A DNA stretch of 64,000 nucleotides from positions 6,234 to 70,233 of the forward strand of contig CAZMNA010000004.1 in NCBI GenBank assembly GCA_964567555.1, written 5' to 3'. The position numbers were made by a program, and so were the translations under genes. Origin of the DNA: an uncultured Candidatus Saccharibacteria bacterium (GTDB taxonomy: Bacteria > Patescibacteriota > Saccharimonadia > Saccharimonadales > UBA10212). Positions 12,727 to 39,652 of this stretch are shown here, one piece after another. Each line of letters starts with the position of its first letter. Positions within the stretch are counted from its first letter, which is position 1. The notes under the pieces are model-generated. The model was not told where the DNA came from. It saw nothing but the letters and a program-made list of their open reading frames with translations, and searched no databases.

Positions 12727-15700
12727 ATGGCAAAAAAGGGGGTAAAGCTTCAGCCTTCAGATTATGTGCATTTGCACAATCATACCCAGTACTCTTTACT
12801 GGATGGTCTGACTAAAATCCCAGGGCTGATAAACACAGTTAAAGATATGGGTATGGAGGCCGTGGCTATAACTGACCACGGCACCATGAGCGGTGTTATT
12901 GATTTTTATAAGGTTGCAAAAAGTGCCCAAATTAAGCCAGTCGTAGGCATGGAGGCATATATTGCGCCGCGCTCTCACGAGGACAAAGACGTAACCAAGG
13001 ACCGGCAATATTTTCACCTGACAATGCTTGCCATGAATGAAGTGGGTTACCAAAATCTTATGAGGCTATCTACGATCGCCAATCTTGACGGTTTTTACTA
13101 CCGCCCGCGGATAGATCACGAGCTTTTAAAAAAATATAACGAAGGTTTAATTGTTCTATCTGGTTGTATCGGCGGCGAAGTCTCTGATGCGCTTAGAAAT
13201 GATGATAAGAAAAAAGCTAAATCAACCGCCGCGTGGTATAAATCTGTTTTTGGTGACCGCTATTACGTTGAACTTCAGGACCATGGCCACCCGGACCACC
13301 CAACTAGCTGGGCCGAGCAGCGCAAAGTAAACGAGGGCTTGTTGGAATTAGCCGAGGAGCTGGATGTGCCAGCACTGGTTACTTGTGACGCTCACTATCT
13401 TAAGCACCAAGACCAGGAGGCTCACGAGATTTTGCTGTGCGTTCAAACCGGTGCATTTTTATCCGACGAAAGCCGTTTTAGTCTTAAGGAGTTTGATCTG
13501 CACGTCATAGACCCAAATGAGATTATCGAACGTTGGGGAGGCAGCCATCCGGAGTTGATTACCAATACCAAGAGAGTCGCTAACCGCTGCCAACTTAAAA
13601 TACGGCTGGATGAAATTTTAATTCCCAAATTCCCGATGCCAAAAGGCGAGACTGAAAAGAGCCTGCTAGAAAAATTAGTTTGGCAGGGCCTGGCTTGGCG
13701 CTACGGCGGCAAGAGTCGTTCTGCCAGCGCTGAACTCTCGTCCGCTCAGGCCAGAAAATTACTGACAAAAGAGGTCATAAGTCGCGCTGAGTACGAGCTT
13801 TCGGTTGTCGATGATATGGGCTTCAACGGCTACTACTTGATAGTGGCCGACTTCATTAACTGGGGAAAGGACCGCACTATTGTGTTTGGGCCGGGCCGGG
13901 GTAGTGCGGCAAGTTCTATCTTGGCTTATGGGCTGAGAATAACTGAAATTGACCCGCTCAAGTATGATCTTTTGTTTGAAAGATTTCTAAACCCCGACCG
14001 TATCAGCATGCCCGATATGGACATTGATATTCAAGACACTCGGCGTGATGAGGTTATAAATTACTGTATAGAAAAATACGGCAAGGAGCGCGTAGCTAAT
14101 ATAGTCACTTTTGGCCGCATGGCAGCGCGTAACTCGGTACGGGATGTAGCCCGTGTGCTGGAGGTGCCCTATGCCGAGGCGGACAGACTGGCAAAGATGA
14201 TTCCGCCCCCTATCCAAGGCCGCCACACGCCTTTGAGTGAATCACTTCAAAACGTACCGGAGCTTAGAGCGGAGAATCAATCTAACGAGCAGTCTGCGCG
14301 TGTATTTGACCTTGCAACAAGACTGGAAGGCACAATCCGGAGCCACGGTGTTCATGCTGCCGGAGTTGTTATTGCCCCAGACGATATCGTAAATTACACA
14401 CCGTTAGAACTTGCCCAAAAAGGAGTTATCGCCACCCAGTACTCTATGGGTCCGATTGAAGAACTGGGCCTTCTCAAAATGGATTTTTTGGGCTTGTCTA
14501 ACTTGACAACCATCAAAAACGCTCTAAGAATTGTTAAAAAAGTTTATGGCAAAGATATAGAAGTAGGCGAATTACCGCTGGATAATAAAAAAACCTTTGA
14601 CCTGCTCCGGGCCGGCGAGACAACGGGGATTTTTCAGCTAGAATCAGCCGGCATGCGCCGCTATCTTAAACAACTTCAGCCTACTGTTTTTGAAGACATA
14701 ATTGCGATGGTCGCGCTTTATCGCCCGGGCCCGATGCAGTGGATTGATGATTTTATTGCCCGTAAACATGGCAATAAAAGTACTGAATATCTACACCCCG
14801 TAATGAAAGACGCGCTGGAAAATACCTATGGTGTGATTGTCTACCAAGAGCAAGTTATGCAAATAAGTAAAGACATGTGTGGCTTCACGGGCGGCCAAGC
14901 GGATACGCTAAGAAAAGCTATCGGCAAAAAGAATCCGTCTGTCATGGCAAAACTGAAGAGCGATTTTATTGAAGGAGCAATCAGGACAGTGGGGGCCGAC
15001 CGCAAAGTGATGGAAAAACTTTGGCAACAGCTAGAAGACTTTGCGGCTTATTGCTTTAACAAAGTACACTCGGCCTGCTATGCGCTAATTGCCTATCAGA
15101 CGGCTTACCTCAAGGCTAACTATCCAGCTGCTTTTATGGCCGCCCTAATGACCAGCGATTATGACGATATTGATCGCTTGGCAATCGAAATTAGCGAGTG
15201 TCAGCACATGGGAATTGAGGTTTTGCCCCCGGATGTTAACGAATCATTCCTGGAGTTTGGTGTCGTTGCAGGCAAGAGCCAAATTCGTTTTGGGTTGGAA
15301 GCTATAAAAAATGTCGGTGCTGGTGCTGCATCCGAGATCTTGCGTGGCCGCAAAGCGGCGGATGGCCGCTTCAAAACGCTCGAAGATTTTTGCAAATATG
15401 TGAACGTTGGTTTGGTTAATAAAAAGGCTCTTGATAGCCTTATCCGGGCCGGAGCTTTTGATAGTCTAGGCGACCGCTCGGTTATATACAACAGCCTTGA
15501 GAATATACTTGCCTTGGCGAATCGACTGCAAAGGGATACAGCCAGTGGTCAGGTGGATCTATTTGGAGATAGCAGTTCAGTTAGTCACGCAGCTTTACGA
15601 CTAGCCCTGAACAAAAACGGTCCAGTATACACCCAGAGTGAGCAGCTAAGCTGGGAGCGTGAGCTCATGGGGCTATATCTTAGCCAAAATCCTTTAGAAC

Positions 15701-22353: not shown

Positions 22354-23562
22354 ATGATTAAGGAATTAGAAAATATGGATATGGATTTTAAACAATTAGC
22401 TCAGGCGATAAAACTAATTGCCGAAGAAAAGAATCTGCCCGAAAATCAAGTGGCTGACATTGTCGAGCAAGCCCTAGCGGCAGCTTGGCGCCGGGACTAC
22501 GGAGAGCGAGACCAGGAAGTCAGGGTGACCATGAATCTCAATACCGGCGAAGTCACAGCGTTTGTTACAAAGGAAGTTGTAGGGCATGTAGAAGACCCGC
22601 ATATGCAAATTAACCTTGCTGAAGCTCAAGCCGTTCGCAAAAACGCAAAGCTTGGCGAGAGCGTGGAATTGATTCAAAAAATTGATGACTTTGGCCGCGT
22701 AGCCGCGCAGACAGCCAAGCAAGTTATAATGCAGCGCTTGCGAGAAGCTGAGCGTGAAATTGTGATGGCGGAATTTGAAGATAAAATCGGCACCCTAGTC
22801 AACGGAATAGTAACGCGTGTAGAGGGCCGGGTTGTTAGGGTTGAACTTGGTAGAGCCCAAGGGCTTTTGCCTGCCAGTGAGCAAATTCAGGGCGAGCGAT
22901 ACTACCCGGGCCAACGACTCAAGCTATTTTTGAAAGATGTTGAAAAAGGTCCACGCGGCCCGCAACTAATTGTTAGCCGTGGCGCCAAGGAATTTATTGA
23001 GCAGCTTTTCAGGGCTGAAGTACCCGAGATGGAATCGGGTGCAGTAGAAATTAAGGCTATTTCACGGGAAGCCGGCGTTCGCTCCAAGATTGCCGTTGCC
23101 AGTACTGTTCCGGGCGTAGACCCGGTCGGCACGTTCGTGGGCGGGCACGGTACGCGTATTAACGCCGTTCGGGACGAAATCGGCAATCAAGAGATGATTG
23201 ACATCATCGTTTGGGATGAAGACCTGGCAGTCTTTATAGCCAACGCGATGAAACCTGCCAATGTCGTGCGGGTTGAAATTGGCAACGACGGCAAAGCCAA
23301 AGTTTTCGTTGAAGATGATCAGCTATCAATAGCTATTGGCAAATCTGGACAAAATGTTCGGTTGGCTGGAAAGCTTACAGATCACGAGTTAGATGTAGAG
23401 GGCAAAGACGGTGGGCAAGCAAGCGCGAAGCCAGAGATCCAGAAGACTGAATCAAAGCCAGTAGTCCAAAAACTAAAGAAGAAATCAGACCTAGAAGATT
23501 CCCTTCTCAAAGCGATTGAGCAGCACGGGACTGAAGCCGAAGACAAAAAGGACTTATCGTAA
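22354..23562 (+). CDS. nusA: Transcription termination/antitermination factor NusA
   Basis: N-terminal domain, S1 (..GTLVNGIVTRVEGRVVRVELG..) and two KH domains (..PGVDPVGTFVGGHGTRINAV.., ..AIGKSGQNVRLAGKLT..). An in-frame ATG at 22375 with AGGA 10 nt upstream is an alternative start. Confidence 0.9.
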   Translation: MIKELENMDMDFKQLAQAIKLIAEEKNLPENQVADIVEQALAAAWRRDYGERDQEVRVTMNLNTGEVTAFVTKEVVGHVEDPHMQINLAEAQAVRKNAKLGESVELIQKIDDFGRVAAQTAKQVIMQRLREAEREIVMAEFEDKIGTLVNGIVTRVEGRVVRVELGRAQGLLPASEQIQGERYYPGQRLKLFLKDVEKGPRGPQLIVSRGAKEFIEQLFRAEVPEMESGAVEIKAISREAGVRSKIAVASTVPGVDPVGTFVGGHGTRINAVRDEIGNQEMIDIIVWDEDLAVFIANAMKPANVVRVEIGNDGKAKVFVEDDQLSIAIGKSGQNVRLAGKLTDHELDVEGKDGGQASAKPEIQKTESKPVVQKLKKKSDLEDSLLKAIEQHGTEAEDKKDLS

Positions 23563-23563
23563 A

Positions 23564-23590
23564 TTAGCACTCTTGACTTGAGAGTGCTAA
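23564..23590. promoter_or_regulatory. CIRCE (HrcA operator) inverted repeat upstream of clpC
   Basis: TTAGCACTC-ttgacttga-GAGTGCTAA matches the consensus TTAGCACTC-N9-GAGTGCTAA at 18 of 18 positions. Confidence 0.8.
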
Positions 23591-23603
23591 TTTGTGGTAT
23601 CAT
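23574..23603 (+). promoter_or_regulatory. Candidate sigma70-type promoter overlapping CIRCE
   Basis: TTGACT (23574-23579, inside the CIRCE spacer), an 18-nt spacer, then TGgTATCAT (23595-23603). A second, leaderless-type TATAAT lies at 23661-23666, 9 nt before ATG 23676. Confidence 0.5.
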
Positions 23604-23675
23604 TTTTATATGCGGCTAGTGCCGTAAACTTGCTCACAGAAAGCTGTAAGCTACAAAGAATATAATCATCCAAAT

Positions 23676-26171
23676 ATGATTCCAAATTCACCAGATTTTC
23701 AAGAATTTTTGTCGCACCTAACCAATAACGCGCTGCATAGCCTAAAGCACGCTGACGCTATAGCCCGCGCTAGTGGCAGTGCCTATATTGGTACAGAGCA
23801 CCTACTGCTTGGAGTACTGGCTCAAGAAGGATCCATTGCTTCTAAAATATTAGAAAATTCCGGCATTACTCTTGATCGTGCCCGGCTAGCCTTAAACCTT
23901 ACTCCAAAAACTTTAGTCATAAATATGGGCGGCAAAGGCTTATCTGAGACTGCAAAGCTCACCCTAAAGATGGCCTGGGAGATTGCCCAGGAATTCGGCC
24001 AAGATTACTGCGGCACAGAGCACGTCTTATATAGCATCTTGAGTCAAAAAAATGCCCGGGCTACCACATTACTCAAGGACATGAACGTGGACGTTGATAA
24101 CTTATCGGGCGAGGTAGAGCAGTTTCTTAATCGGCAACAGTTTGAAGCCGACGGTGCAGCGAGCAACAATCGGCGGCGCGGCAAAGCTGGCAAACAATCC
24201 GCCCTAGAACTCTTTGGTTCGGATCTGACTAAGTTAGCGCGCGACGGCAAACTGGACCCGGTAGTTGGTCGTGAACCCCAGATTAAACGGGTAATTACAA
24301 TTTTAAACCGCCGGACGAAGAACAATCCGGTATTAATCGGGGAACCAGGCGTCGGCAAGACGGCTATCGTTGAGGGCATCGCTCAGAGGATCGTAAATGA
24401 AGAAGTCCCCGACTCGCTTTTAGATAAACGAATTATTACGCTAGACCTGGCCGGCATGATTGCAGGCACTAAGTACCGCGGCGAATTTGAAGATCGTCTT
24501 AAAAAAGTCCTGGCAGAACTTGAGCAGGATAAAAATACGATAGTCTTTATTGACGAGTTGCACTTGATTGTTGGTGCTGGCGCTGCTGAAGGCTCAATGG
24601 ATGCAGGTAATATATTAAAACCCAGCCTCGCTCGCGGCAAAATCCAGCTGGTTGGTGCAACTACAACAGATGAATACTCAAAGCATGTCGAAAAGGACGC
24701 GGCCTTAGAGCGCCGATTCCAGCCTGTCCAGGTGCCCGAGGCTACACCCGCGGAGACACTCGCTATCCTAAAAGGCCTCAGAAGTCATTATGAAGAGTTC
24801 CATAATGTCAAAGCATCTGACGAAGTCTTGGAAGATACAGTCAATTTTGCTCGCCGTTACATCAATGACCGCTATATGCCCGATAAGGCAATTGACCTGC
24901 TCGATGAGACGGCAGCCTACTTGCGGGTTAACCTTGGCAAAACCCCGCCTCAACTTCGAGGGCTACAAAAAGAACTAAAGCTAATCAACAGTCGGATTGA
25001 TGACGCAGTGGATAATGAGGATTACGAGAAAGCGGCCGTAGAAAAGCAAAAGGCCAGTGTATTAAATGAAAAGATTACCAAGCTGGAAGAAACGCACAAG
25101 ACGGGCAAGGCCATTATTATGAGAAGCGATGACGTGGCAGAAACGGTTGCTCGTATGACAGGAGTCCCGGTAACCAAAGTTATTCGCTCAGAAGCAAAAT
25201 ATCTGATTAACCTTGAAAAGAATTTGGCTAAATATGTCATCGGACAAGAAGAGGCCGTGTCAATGGTTGCCAAGGCCGTTCGCCGCTCTCGTTCAGGCAT
25301 ATCCAGCGAAAAGCGTCCGATTGGTTCATTCATTTTTCTTGGACCAACCGGAGTGGGTAAGACCGAATTAGCTCGGGTACTGGCGAGGGAATTTTTCGGC
25401 TCTGAGGATGCTCTTATTAAAATTGATATGAGCGAATTCGGTGAACACCACACTGTCGCCCGTTTGGTGGGGGCACCAGCCGGCTATGTTGGCTACGATG
25501 ACGGCGGTCAGCTAACCGATAAGGTTCGCCGCCAGCCCTACTCCGTAGTGTTGTTTGATGAAATCGAAAAGGCCCATCCGGACATATTCAACATTCTTTT
25601 ACAGATTCTTGAGGACGGTCATCTTGCCGATGCCAAAGGTCGTAGGATTGATTTTTCAAATACCATAGTCATTATGACCTCTAACATTGGTGCCGATAAG
25701 CTCCAGAAGGAAGCTAGCTTTGGCTTTAGCGCCATTAATCCGGGTGCCCTGGGTAACCTAGATGAGTTGCATGAATCTAACAAGGCTAAAGTCACTGACG
25801 ATTTAAAGAAGATAATGCGCCCTGAACTTTTAAACCGGATTGATAAGGTTGTCGTCTTCCGGGCACTGTCCAAAAAAGACGTCATGAGTATACTTGATCT
25901 TCAACTGGACGAGTTGCGTTCGCGGTTAATCAAAAAAGGTATCGGTCTTGATGTTAACGAACAAGCCAAGCAATACCTACTAGAGAACGGCTACGACGCC
26001 CACAATGGTGCTAGGCCAATGCGGCGCCTTCTGCAAGAGACCGTTGAGGATGCTATTGCCGCCGGCCTTCTGGATGAGAGCTACCATAAAGGTGATGTGG
26101 TGACTGTGGCGATTAAACAGAGTCCGCGCTCAGAAAAGACAGAATTAGTTTACGCAGCGTCACCAGAATAG
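23676..26171 (+). CDS. clpC: ATP-dependent Clp protease ATP-binding subunit ClpC
   Basis: Two Clp_N repeats, two AAA+ modules ([13 protein letters not shown]; [12 protein letters not shown]) and a UVR-like linker (..[14 protein letters not shown]..). Confidence 0.9.
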
Positions 26172-26194: not shown

Positions 26195-27175
26195 ATGAGT
26201 TCTATCAAGCTTGGTCGTCTAATTTGTTTTGCTGCCCTAATAGCTATGCTGACTTTTGGCTGGCTAAATGCCAATGCCATATCCGATTGGCTGAAGCTGC
26301 GTGGCTACTCGCCCTCGCCCCAAATTTCTACCCTGGCAGCCGAGGATACCATGACTGCTTATACCAAGCATCTTTTCTATGTTGACCATCCCCAGCTAAT
26401 TGCAAGTGTTAATGAATTTAGGCAGGATTGCCCTGATAGCCCCAGCACTATTGTACTTGGCTGTTATCACCCTGGCCTAAACGGCATTTATATATATAAC
26501 GTGGCTTCGCCAAAATTAGCTGGCGTAACTCAGGTAACGGCGGCTCACGAGGTCTTGCACGCCGTCTATGAACGCCTAAGTTCTTCAGATCGAAGCAAGC
26601 TGAACTCAGAGCTGGAAGAATATTATAAAAACAAGCTTAGCGATCCACGCGTCTTGGATGAGGTAAGAATATATCAGCAGACCGAGCCAAATGACGTTTA
26701 TGATGAAATGAGCTGTACGTTCGGCACAGAGATTGCTAACCTACCGACGTCTCTAAGCGACTACTATAAAAAATATTTCGGCGATCGTTTAAAAGTGGTC
26801 GCTTACGAGACCCAGTACGAGAGCGCTTTTACTAGCCGCCAAGCCGAGTTATCGGCTGACGATATCAAGCTAAGTATCTTAAAAAGTCAAATCGACAGCC
26901 AGCAAGCTGAGCTGCAAGTCCAACTCAGCCAGATTAACTCTGACAAGGCTCGTCTTGATAGTGAACGGGCCGCTGGCGACTATTCTTCGTATAACTCCGG
27001 CGTCCTTGCCTACAACAGTGAAATTGATGCGTATAACTCAAAAGTAAACCAGCTCCGCTTGAATATAAGTACCTACAACAGCCTTGTCGCCCAGCGGAAC
27101 CAAATTGCCACTGATTTAGCGGCTCTTCAGAAATCGCTCGATACCCGAACCGTACCCCAGGCAGTCGGTCGGTAA
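26195..27175 (+). CDS. Hypothetical membrane-anchored protein with HExxH motif and C-terminal coiled coil
   Basis: N-terminal TM (LICFAALIAMLTFGWL), ..TAAHEVLHAVYE.. (HExxH), and a C-terminal ~110 aa of heptad-like Q/S/L repeats with recurring YNS. Confidence 0.6.
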   Translation: MSSIKLGRLICFAALIAMLTFGWLNANAISDWLKLRGYSPSPQISTLAAEDTMTAYTKHLFYVDHPQLIASVNEFRQDCPDSPSTIVLGCYHPGLNGIYIYNVASPKLAGVTQVTAAHEVLHAVYERLSSSDRSKLNSELEEYYKNKLSDPRVLDEVRIYQQTEPNDVYDEMSCTFGTEIANLPTSLSDYYKKYFGDRLKVVAYETQYESAFTSRQAELSADDIKLSILKSQIDSQQAELQVQLSQINSDKARLDSERAAGDYSSYNSGVLAYNSEIDAYNSKVNQLRLNISTYNSLVAQRNQIATDLAALQKSLDTRTVPQAVGR

Positions 27176-38325: not shown

Positions 38326-39609
38326 ATGATCATTACTCGCACCGATGAGCCTAATAATAAAATAAAGCTTCTAATAAGTTTGGATTCAAGTGAGCTTGGG
38401 CCCGTCAAGGATCACGTCATAGCCAAACACTTTGGCGACGTAAAAGTTCCTGGCTTTAGGGTTGGGCGTGCACCAGCGCAAGTTATTGAACAAAATCTTG
38501 ATCAAAAATTGGTGGTTAACGATTTTTTGGAGCACGCCATTAATGAATACTTTCCACGGGCTCTTCAACAGGAAAATGTGCGAGGTGTTGGTCAGCCCGA
38601 CATTCAAGTAAAAAAGTTTGTACCTTACGACCAGCTAGAGTTCGAGGCGTCTTTGGCCGTCGTCGGTCCGGTTAAACTGCCCGACTATAAGAAAATTAAG
38701 CTGACTAGGCCAAAGGTCGAAATTTCTACAACCGAAGTAAATGAAGTTCTGAGGTCACTACAGCAGCGAACGGCCAATCGCAAAGAATCAAGTGCCGCAA
38801 TCAAGACAGGCGATGAGGCAATCATTGACTTTGTCGGCAAAGATGACAAATCAAAACCGGTGCCGGGTGCTGAAGGCAAAGATTTTTCGGTTGTAATTGG
38901 TGCTCAAGCTTTAATCCCTGGCTTCGAGGATAATCTAATTGGACTAAAGGCAGGTGATACTAAGAAATTTGCGCTTGCCTTTCCTAGTAACTATGGACTG
39001 CCAGAATTGCGCTCAAAGAAAGTTAGTTTTAGCGCAGAGGTCAAACAGGTCAATGAACTAACTGAGCCTAAACTGGATGATGCATTTGCTGGCAAAATCG
39101 GGCCTTTTAAAAACCTCGCCGACCTCAAAGCCGATATTAAAAAACAGCTGATGGCCGAGCGAGAGATGCAGGCGCAGCGTGATGTTGAGAGCCGCTTAGT
39201 TAAACAAATCGTTGATAAATCTACGGTTGATATACCACAGAGTTTGGTTGAAGAGCAACTGCAGCTCATGGAAGACGAAGAAAAGCGTAATTTAGCCCAC
39301 CGCGGGCAAACCTGGCAGGAACATCTCAGGGCTGAGGCGGTCTCTGCCGAACAACACCGTGAACGCTACCGCTCTGAGGCTGCCGAGCGTGTCAAGGCTG
39401 GTCTAGCCCTGAGTGAGATTTCTATACGCGAAAAGATCCAAGTCACGCCCGAAGAAATAAATAGCCGCATTGCCGAGCTCAAAGGTCAATATGCCGACGA
39501 AGCAATGCGAGCCGAACTTGATAACCCGGCTAATAGACAGGACGTCGCAGCACGCCTGCTAACCGACAAGACGCTTCAAAAACTACTTGAATACTCAACC
39601 ACGAATTAG
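38326..39609 (+). CDS. tig: Trigger factor
   Basis: N-terminal ribosome-binding domain (..GFRVGRAP..), FKBP-type middle domain (..IDFVGKDD..GFEDNLIGLKAGD..) and a helical C-domain. Confidence 0.9.
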   Translation: MIITRTDEPNNKIKLLISLDSSELGPVKDHVIAKHFGDVKVPGFRVGRAPAQVIEQNLDQKLVVNDFLEHAINEYFPRALQQENVRGVGQPDIQVKKFVPYDQLEFEASLAVVGPVKLPDYKKIKLTRPKVEISTTEVNEVLRSLQQRTANRKESSAAIKTGDEAIIDFVGKDDKSKPVPGAEGKDFSVVIGAQALIPGFEDNLIGLKAGDTKKFALAFPSNYGLPELRSKKVSFSAEVKQVNELTEPKLDDAFAGKIGPFKNLADLKADIKKQLMAEREMQAQRDVESRLVKQIVDKSTVDIPQSLVEEQLQLMEDEEKRNLAHRGQTWQEHLRAEAVSAEQHRERYRSEAAERVKAGLALSEISIREKIQVTPEEINSRIAELKGQYADEAMRAELDNPANRQDVAARLLTDKTLQKLLEYSTTN

Positions 39610-39632
39610 CACTCTTGACTTGCGAGTGCCAA
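39606..39632. promoter_or_regulatory. CIRCE-like (HrcA operator) inverted repeat upstream of clpP
   Basis: TTAGCACTC-ttgacttgc-GAGTGCCAA matches the consensus at 17 of 18 positions. The first 19 nt (AATTAGCACTCTTGACTTG) are identical to the clpC copy. TTGACT in the spacer lies 16 nt upstream of TAAGCT (39638-39643), which is 9 nt before ATG 39653. Confidence 0.7.
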
Positions 39633-39652
39633 CCGGCTAAGCTGGTTTTATT

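Follow-up and report, generated by a model that had tools for sequence, protein, structure and literature searches.

In the window (the whole stretch of DNA that was analysed, 64 kb), nusA is followed by a palindromic element and by a gene encoding a ClpC-type AAA+ unfoldase, and a sister element precedes clpP. The coordinates of the features are collected in Table 1. A single base (23563) separates the nusA stop codon from the first palindrome, which lies 85 nt before the clpC ATG, over the predicted -35 box and the -35/-10 spacer. ClpC-type Hsp100 proteins are marked by a Clp_N domain, two AAA+ modules, a short middle domain, and a ClpP-docking (I/L/V/F)GF loop. The 831-aa ORF downstream of the palindrome has Clp_N, two AAA modules with approximately 60 aa between D1 and D2, a short middle domain, and an FGF loop at 682-684, and it was therefore assigned to the ClpC type, with a score below the cut-off of the ClpC-specific HMM. 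The same protein is found verbatim in soil and rhizosphere metagenome assemblies. The sequences nearest to it carry the label Candidatus Saccharimonadales, which assigns the window to a Saccharibacterium (TM7, Patescibacteria/CPR) of soil. Between clpC and radA lies a 326-aa ORF (26195-27175) without a Pfam or NCBIfam match, which occupies the same position in all contigs with this ClpC and has its own leaderless-type TATACT box.

Table 1 Features of the clpC and clpP loci in the window.
Feature	Position	Strand	Basis or remark
nusA	22354-23562	+	TIGR01953, 358 bits; upstream neighbour of the clpC CIRCE
CIRCE operator at clpC (predicted)	23564-23590 (left arm 23564-23572, spacer 23573-23581, right arm 23582-23590)	+	18/18 match
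-35-like hexamer TTGACT in the CIRCE spacer	23573-23578	+	Orientation-specific in relatives
Extended -10 TGgTATCAT, promoter P1 (predicted)	23595-23603 (hexamer 23598-23603)	+	19 nt after the -35; TG at 23595-23596
Five-codon ORF ATGCGGCTAGTGCCGTAA (MRLVP)	23610-23627	+	Starts 6 nt after the P1 -10
TCACAG, copy of TYACAG	23634-23639	+	Motif recurrent in clpC leaders of relatives
Proximal TATAAT, candidate leaderless promoter P2	23661-23666	+	9 nt before the clpC ATG; without a -35; beyond the reach of the operator
clpC-type AAA+ unfoldase, 831 aa	23676-26171	+	Pfam domains and FGF motif
Sister CIRCE at clpP	39606-39632	+	17/18 match; spacer TTGACTTGC; TTGACT at 39615-39620
-10 TAAGCT of clpP	39638-39643	+	Spacing to the -35, 17 nt; gap to the clpP ATG, 9 nt (leaderless geometry)
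clpP, 199 aa	39653-40252	+	PF00574, 253 bits

The element at clpC reads TTAGCACTC-TTGACTTGA-GAGTGCTAA (in full, TTAGCACTCTTGACTTGAGAGTGCTAA). A preliminary description of this DNA had claimed a perfect CIRCE at 18 positions, and the comparison with the consensus TTAGCACTC-N9-GAGTGCTAA confirmed it with 18 of 18 matches and no mismatch. The palindrome is further lengthened by flanking AAA/TTT. In shuffled sequence, matches with at most three mismatches are expected at a mean of 0.05 per window, and two matches occurred in none of 100 shuffles. At the same threshold, a scan of the 64-kb window returned one match besides the clpC site, namely the sister element that the preliminary description had also reported at clpP; a looser scan of the window (five mismatches, spacers of 7-11 nt) gave nothing else convincing. 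The sister element reads TTAGCACTC-TTGACTTGC-GAGTGCCAA (one mismatch) and lies 20 nt before the clpP ATG. The tig-clpP junction is very compact: the stop codon TAG of tig (38326-39609) lies at 39607-39609, inside the left arm of the sister CIRCE, the -10 TAAGCT falls within a terminator-like hairpin (39631-39647), and the ATG follows 9 nt on. No alternative promoter for clpP was seen in the window. In Bacillus, clpC and clpP are CtsR (class III) targets. A scan of the window for the CtsR box (RGTCAAA-N4-RGTCAAA, three mismatches) found five sites, against 6.2 expected by chance, and none near clpC or clpP. The arrangement with ctsR-mcsA-mcsB upstream of clpC is absent from the window, where nusA stands in that place.

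Conservation of the element at clpC in relatives, which the preliminary description had set as a refutation test, held. The relatives were 80 metagenome loci picked solely by the similarity of their protein to the ClpC of the window (72-86% identity), and a CIRCE with at most three mismatches was sought within 400 nt upstream. It was found upstream of clpC in all 76 loci with at least 226 nt of upstream sequence, and 32 of these elements are perfect; the four loci without a CIRCE have just 87-173 nt of upstream sequence. In the closest relatives, an identical CIRCE-TTYGTGNTATNAT block is kept and the rest of the intergenic region has diverged. The upstream neighbour is nusA in 29 of 66 judgeable loci, and the CIRCE is kept at clpC in the other 37, indicating that the element belongs to clpC and not to nusA.

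The geometry around the element resembles a promoter. According to the preliminary description, the CIRCE spacer contains TTGACT and an extended -10, TGgTATCAT, follows 18 nt downstream; both boxes are present, but the spacing is 19 nt. The extended -10 starts 5 nt after the operator, and the right half-site fills the -35/-10 spacer. The -35 boxes of the window are mostly weak, and the consensus TTGACT of the CIRCE promoters is therefore conspicuous. Among the 71 distinct elements of the ClpC-selected set, TTGAC is in the gene orientation in 64 and GTCAA occurs in none. This strict orientation argues for a promoter role rather than a symmetric contact with the repressor. TTGAC stands at the start of the spacer in 54 of the 64 forward elements and is shifted by 4 nt in ten; a good -10 follows in 62, and 46 have a TGn extension. 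The alternative register nnnnTTGAC, in which TTGAC takes the last five spacer positions, was seen in L153, L154, L157, L158, L163, L164, L168, L171, L177, L179, and L222; in eight of the ten shifted elements the -10 is unmoved, so that the spacing is 15 rather than 19 nt. The commonest -10 start in the clpC clade is CIRCE position 35, as in the window, which gives a spacing of 19 nt, or 15 nt in the shifted register.

The optimum -35/-10 spacing is 17 plus or minus 1 nt. Since both 19 and 15 nt are off this optimum, P1 may rely mainly on its extended -10, and the sequences suggest that this box may carry much of the promoter load in the clade. For the wider phylum, the exact element TTAGCACTCTTGACTTGNGAGTGC was scanned in one genome per species (GTDB representatives), which gave at least 120 loci, with 126 elements listed. 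The search pattern fixes TTGAC in these elements; the orientation counts given above are from the ClpC-selected set. Among the matches listed, a -10 agreeing with TATAAT in at least five of six positions lies 16-20 nt after TTGACT in 107 of the 126 elements, compared with 36 of 504 control positions, and the best-scoring -10 hexamer lies at 17-18 nt in 111 of the 126. The role of TTGAC as a -35 is thus less certain in the clade of the window than in the wider phylum with its spacing of 17-18 nt. In column statistics of the listed elements, the -10 signal is visible, the region upstream is rich in A, and AA/TT lengthens the palindrome. In every case the -35 and the -10 flank the right half-site, so the footprint of RNA polymerase would overlap with an HrcA dimer bound there.

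The palindromes might instead be primarily intrinsic terminators, of nusA at the first site and of tig at the sister site, with a likeness to CIRCE that is incidental or secondary. Their positions fit this idea, with one element one base after the nusA stop codon and the other overlapping the tig stop codon. A terminator scan flags 23555-23599 as a stem followed by TCATTTTTAT, and the RNA of the clpC palindrome folds at -22.8 kcal/mol (z = -7). However, a hairpin needs no 18/18 match to a protein-binding consensus, and an oriented TTGAC with a -10 box would serve nothing in a terminator. The CIRCE tracks clpC, not nusA, in 37 relatives and is specific to the position before heat-shock genes. 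Moreover, the U-run is off the core stem, since the T-run adjoins only an extended, G-U-containing stem, and at clpP the separate hairpin at 39631-39647 is the more terminator-like structure. We regard a primary terminator function as extremely improbable. A dual role, in which the clpC palindrome would also end nusA transcripts, is less likely than not but has an appreciable probability.

The genes downstream of the elements point to a heat-shock regulon. Of the loci obtained in the GTDB scan (at least 120), 92 are labelled Saccharibacteria or Saccharimonadales, and most of the others are Patescibacteria (Kerfeld-, Yanofsky-, and Parcubacteria) or unclassified. Among the 126 listed elements, the gene directly downstream is clpC in 44, clpP in 33 (in other species), dnaK in 18, hrcA in 14, and hsp20 in two; lon, dnaJ, groES, and a cyanobacterial groEL account for one each. 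The identity of some other downstream ORFs is doubtful, or they are unrelated. The dnaJ gene of a gut Saccharimonas has its own CIRCE. In four hrcA loci picked by protein similarity, a CIRCE with a TTGAC or TTGAG spacer precedes both hrcA-grpE and dnaK-dnaJ (4/4), and a contig of 809,595 bp from one relative (DATFHW010000025.1) carries hrcA, CIRCE-dnaK, and CIRCE-clpC together. The occurrence of the same element before clpP, dnaK, hrcA, hsp20, lon, and dnaJ as well as clpC indicates that it marks a heat-shock regulon that would include both ClpC and ClpP, in support of the earlier proposal that ClpCP belongs to the HrcA regulon in this lineage. Identical 24-nt elements also occur outside Patescibacteria (L014, Scytonema; L092, Clostridia; L064, L066, and L093), for example before the cyanobacterial groEL. 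The MAGs labelled Dormiibacterota (L040) and Gammaproteobacteria (L056) probably contain mis-binned Patescibacteria contigs, because the clpP and hrcA genes adjacent to the elements look Saccharibacteria-like.

The repressor gene itself was not found in the window by tblastn with HrcA, DnaK, GroES, Hsp20, and Lon of relatives. The 10 kb beyond each window end (84 kb together with the window) contain no hrcA and no further CIRCE, and comparison of the hrcA neighbourhoods of relatives with the window revealed no synteny. Three candidates for the HrcA of this genome, P0027, P0033, and P0066, chosen by their source and contig profile, turned out to belong to other samples. HrcA (Pfam PF01628 and PF03444) is plentiful in the lineage, with more than 8000 homologues, and hrcA is presumably present in this particular genome as well. 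The HrcA proteins of Saccharimonadales and other Patescibacteria have 225-270 aa (P0046, P0027, P0033, and P0066; L010, L029, L032, and others), compared with 338 aa in Thermotoga maritima HrcA (1STZ). Pfam recognises the winged-helix domain in them and, of the HrcA domain, no more than the C-terminal half; in the lineage, the sensor/dimerisation part appears to lack approximately 100 residues. Their winged-helix N-terminus aligns to 1STZ (E = 5e-18); by this alignment the DNA-binding module is conserved, in agreement with the unchanged half-sites. An AlphaFold model of the short HrcA is of low confidence (pLDDT 61), and its best fold match is 1STZ, followed by IclR and GAF proteins, which faintly hints at a layout of winged helix plus GAF-like domain.

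In model organisms, GroESL keeps HrcA active (the titration model). The only groES gene in the scan follows one of the 126 CIRCE(TTGACTTG) elements among the matches listed (L027:3133-5176), and the nearest relatives of the GroEL encoded there are labelled Parcubacteria or Buchananbacteria, none of them Saccharibacteria. A GroEL search returned only matches labelled Parcubacteria, Buchananbacteria, or Patescibacteria group, and no GroESL in Saccharibacteria-labelled data.

Alternatively, the element could function at the RNA level, as a hairpin for stability or processing, or be the target of a regulator different from HrcA. For B. subtilis, it has been proposed that CIRCE acts post-transcriptionally. 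The clpC palindrome could form a strong hairpin, and some arm variants in relatives are symmetric (TTGGCACTC...GAGTGCCAA and CTAGCACTC...GAGTGCTAG), but variants without symmetry, G/T and A/C at positions 3/25, are frequent as well. Given a -35 within the spacer, the predicted transcription start is downstream, so the element would not be in the clpC or clpP mRNA. The arms are the invariant HrcA consensus, and the lineage has an HrcA whose winged helix is conserved. Action in RNA or through another regulator is accordingly a very improbable reading.

The region between P1 and clpC is longer than in many relatives, where a distance of 6-14 nt separates the CIRCE-linked -10 from the start codon of clpP, clpC, or hrcA. 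At one hrcA locus (L129:5985-6031, protein P0027), gene callers place the hrcA start within the CIRCE of the gene itself and so predict a product of 245 aa; the true start is likely an ATG approximately 7 nt after the -10, which would make this hrcA leaderless. In the window, 72 nt separate the P1 -10 from the clpC ATG, and from the -10 geometry transcription from P1 would start at approximately 23610. The five-codon ORF at this point occupies the site of the leaderless clpC start in some relatives; the ORF is not conserved in relatives, and it may therefore be a vestige of an insertion that made the 66-nt leader. The TYACAG motif lies approximately 37-42 nt before the clpC ATG in about half of the leader-bearing relatives (L143-L222), often after a small variable hairpin. 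An Rfam search of 23400-23800 gave only noise, and apart from the recurrent TYACAG, comparison of the clpC leaders of relatives found no conserved RNA structure or upstream ORF. A P1 transcript with its long leader lacks a good Shine-Dalgarno sequence in this genome.

The preliminary description had also pointed to a second, leaderless-type TATAAT at 23661. It is present with a gap of 9 nt to the ATG, and such a geometry is overrepresented in this genome: 11 of 55 window genes have a TATAAT-like hexamer whose end lies 7-12 nt ahead of the start codon, approximately 8-fold over other offsets. Leaderless-type promoters of this kind precede the starts at 12727, 21021, 23676, 26195, 27196, 36986, 38326, and 36918 (minus strand), among others, and internal operon genes of the window have GGAG 8 nt upstream of the start. 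Since a 9-nt gap belongs to the leaderless class, a proximal, operator-free promoter is plausible, and clpC probably also has this promoter, P2, for basal expression. The P2 TATAAT is partly conserved in relatives, where G-rich motifs also occur. We considered whether it could be a leftover Shine-Dalgarno region and judged this less likely, as the GGTGG/GAGGG motifs of relatives sit 12-18 nt from the ATG, compared with 8 nt for ribosome-binding sites here. The promoter reading of this TATAAT is preferred over a Shine-Dalgarno remnant because TATAAT at 7-12 nt is the leaderless signature of the genome. Should P2 be the dominant promoter, HrcA might have a modest influence on clpC.

P2 also gives rise to the possibility that the CIRCE is a relic here, with hrcA lost or P1 dead and clpC transcribed constitutively from the proximal TATAAT. 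The perfect TATAAT 9 nt before the ATG, the suboptimal P1 spacing of 19 nt, the decay in the window leader of the Shine-Dalgarno-like motif of relatives, and the absence of hrcA from 84 kb of the source genome would all fit. Against this, the genome retains two intact operators (18/18 and 17/18), both with undamaged -35 and -10 boxes, which argues for ongoing selection; the CIRCE-TTYGTGNTATNAT block is identical in the closest relatives while its flanks diverge, clpP has no alternative promoter, and HrcA was found at every examined locus of relatives. We consider loss of function improbable.

We propose that the clpC palindrome is a true HrcA operator (CIRCE) that forms part of a sigma-70-type promoter, P1, which would be repressed by occlusion and induced under stress; we put the probability of this reading at roughly 80%. 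With the -35 TTGACT in the 9-nt spacer of the operator and the right half-site in the -35/-10 gap, an HrcA dimer on both half-sites would exclude RNA polymerase. Its release under proteotoxic stress would induce clpC. The same operator-promoter design at clpP, 16 kb away, would yield a nearly leaderless mRNA, and in relatives the design recurs at hrcA-grpE, dnaK-dnaJ, hsp20, and lon. The chaperones and the ClpCP protease of Saccharibacteria thus appear to form one HrcA regulon. More tentatively, and with less than even confidence, a shortened HrcA (approximately 235 aa, apparently without the insertion of approximately 100 aa found in characterised HrcAs) could be the single regulator of the DnaK system, small heat-shock proteins, and ClpC/ClpP/Lon in Saccharibacteria and probably much of Patescibacteria, acting through the cassette with the -35 in the spacer, often on leaderless mRNA and possibly without GroEL feedback.

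Saccharibacteria and other CPR/Patescibacteria are ultrasmall epibionts, and to our knowledge their gene regulation is almost uncharted. Full-text literature searches yielded no paper that connects Saccharibacteria or Patescibacteria with HrcA or CIRCE. The analysis offers a concrete, testable regulon for Saccharibacteria (hrcA-grpE, dnaK-dnaJ, hsp20, clpC, clpP, and lon) with a defined cassette and a compact repressor. It suggests that, in a reduced genome, a single repressor can take charge of both the chaperone (class I) and the protease (class III) circuit of the heat-shock response. For this phylum, evidence at the sequence level on how promoters are built and on leaderless translation is rare, and the conserved geometry supplies some; the cassette could serve as an inducible promoter in new Saccharibacteria genetic systems. 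A preprint on the TM7x transcriptome describes clpB and clpP changing together and gives no regulator. What is new here is the lineage-wide composition of the regulon and the standardised operator-promoter design; the HrcA/CIRCE mechanism and occlusion are already established, so the advance is incremental and not conceptual.

In B. subtilis, CIRCE lies around or after the transcription start, whereas here the operator encloses the -35. The CIRCE consensus and the class I regulon, with HrcA/CIRCE at the dnaK and groE operons, were taken as quoted in PMC3842655, and the half-sites TTAGCACTC-N9-GAGTGCTAA are identical here. As in that regulon, hrcA is predicted to be autoregulated and stands beside grpE and dnaK in Saccharibacterial relatives; in contrast to it, clpC and clpP are among the predicted targets here, many of the target mRNAs are predicted to lack a leader, and HrcA is approximately 100 aa shorter. 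In Mollicutes, CIRCE/HrcA is found at the operon of dnaK and at clpB and lon (PMC5138195), which bears out the precedent invoked in the preliminary description. Those bacteria likewise have reduced genomes, HrcA is their one conserved regulator of stress, and CIRCE reaches an AAA+ protein (ClpB) and a protease (Lon) (PMC5138195), whereas the targets here are the ClpC unfoldase and the ClpP peptidase, the lineage (Patescibacteria) is unrelated, and the -35 lies in the spacer. Going by its title, as cited in PMC3842655 and PMC6305308, the work of Chastanet and Msadek (2003) places clpP of Streptococcus salivarius under both CtsR and HrcA. On the strength of that title, the CIRCE at clpP is shared with S. 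salivarius, but HrcA there acts with CtsR, whereas here no CtsR box lies near clpC or clpP and clpC is included too. The HrcA operators of Helicobacter pylori overlap the -35/-10 core promoter and the transcription start and repress by occlusion (PMC6032397), and HrcA itself senses temperature in the H. pylori/Campylobacter systems (PMC6032397; PMC8533110). An HrcA operator over the core promoter is common to these systems and ours (PMC6032397), whereas the operators there are degenerate, resemble CIRCE, and function together with HspR at chaperone operons only. In Oenococcus oeni, CtsR alone controls dnaK, groEL, and the clp genes, so that there, too, a single repressor unites chaperone and protease control in a streamlined genome (PMC6305308). 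The two cases are mirror images: the surviving regulator is CtsR in O. oeni and apparently HrcA here.
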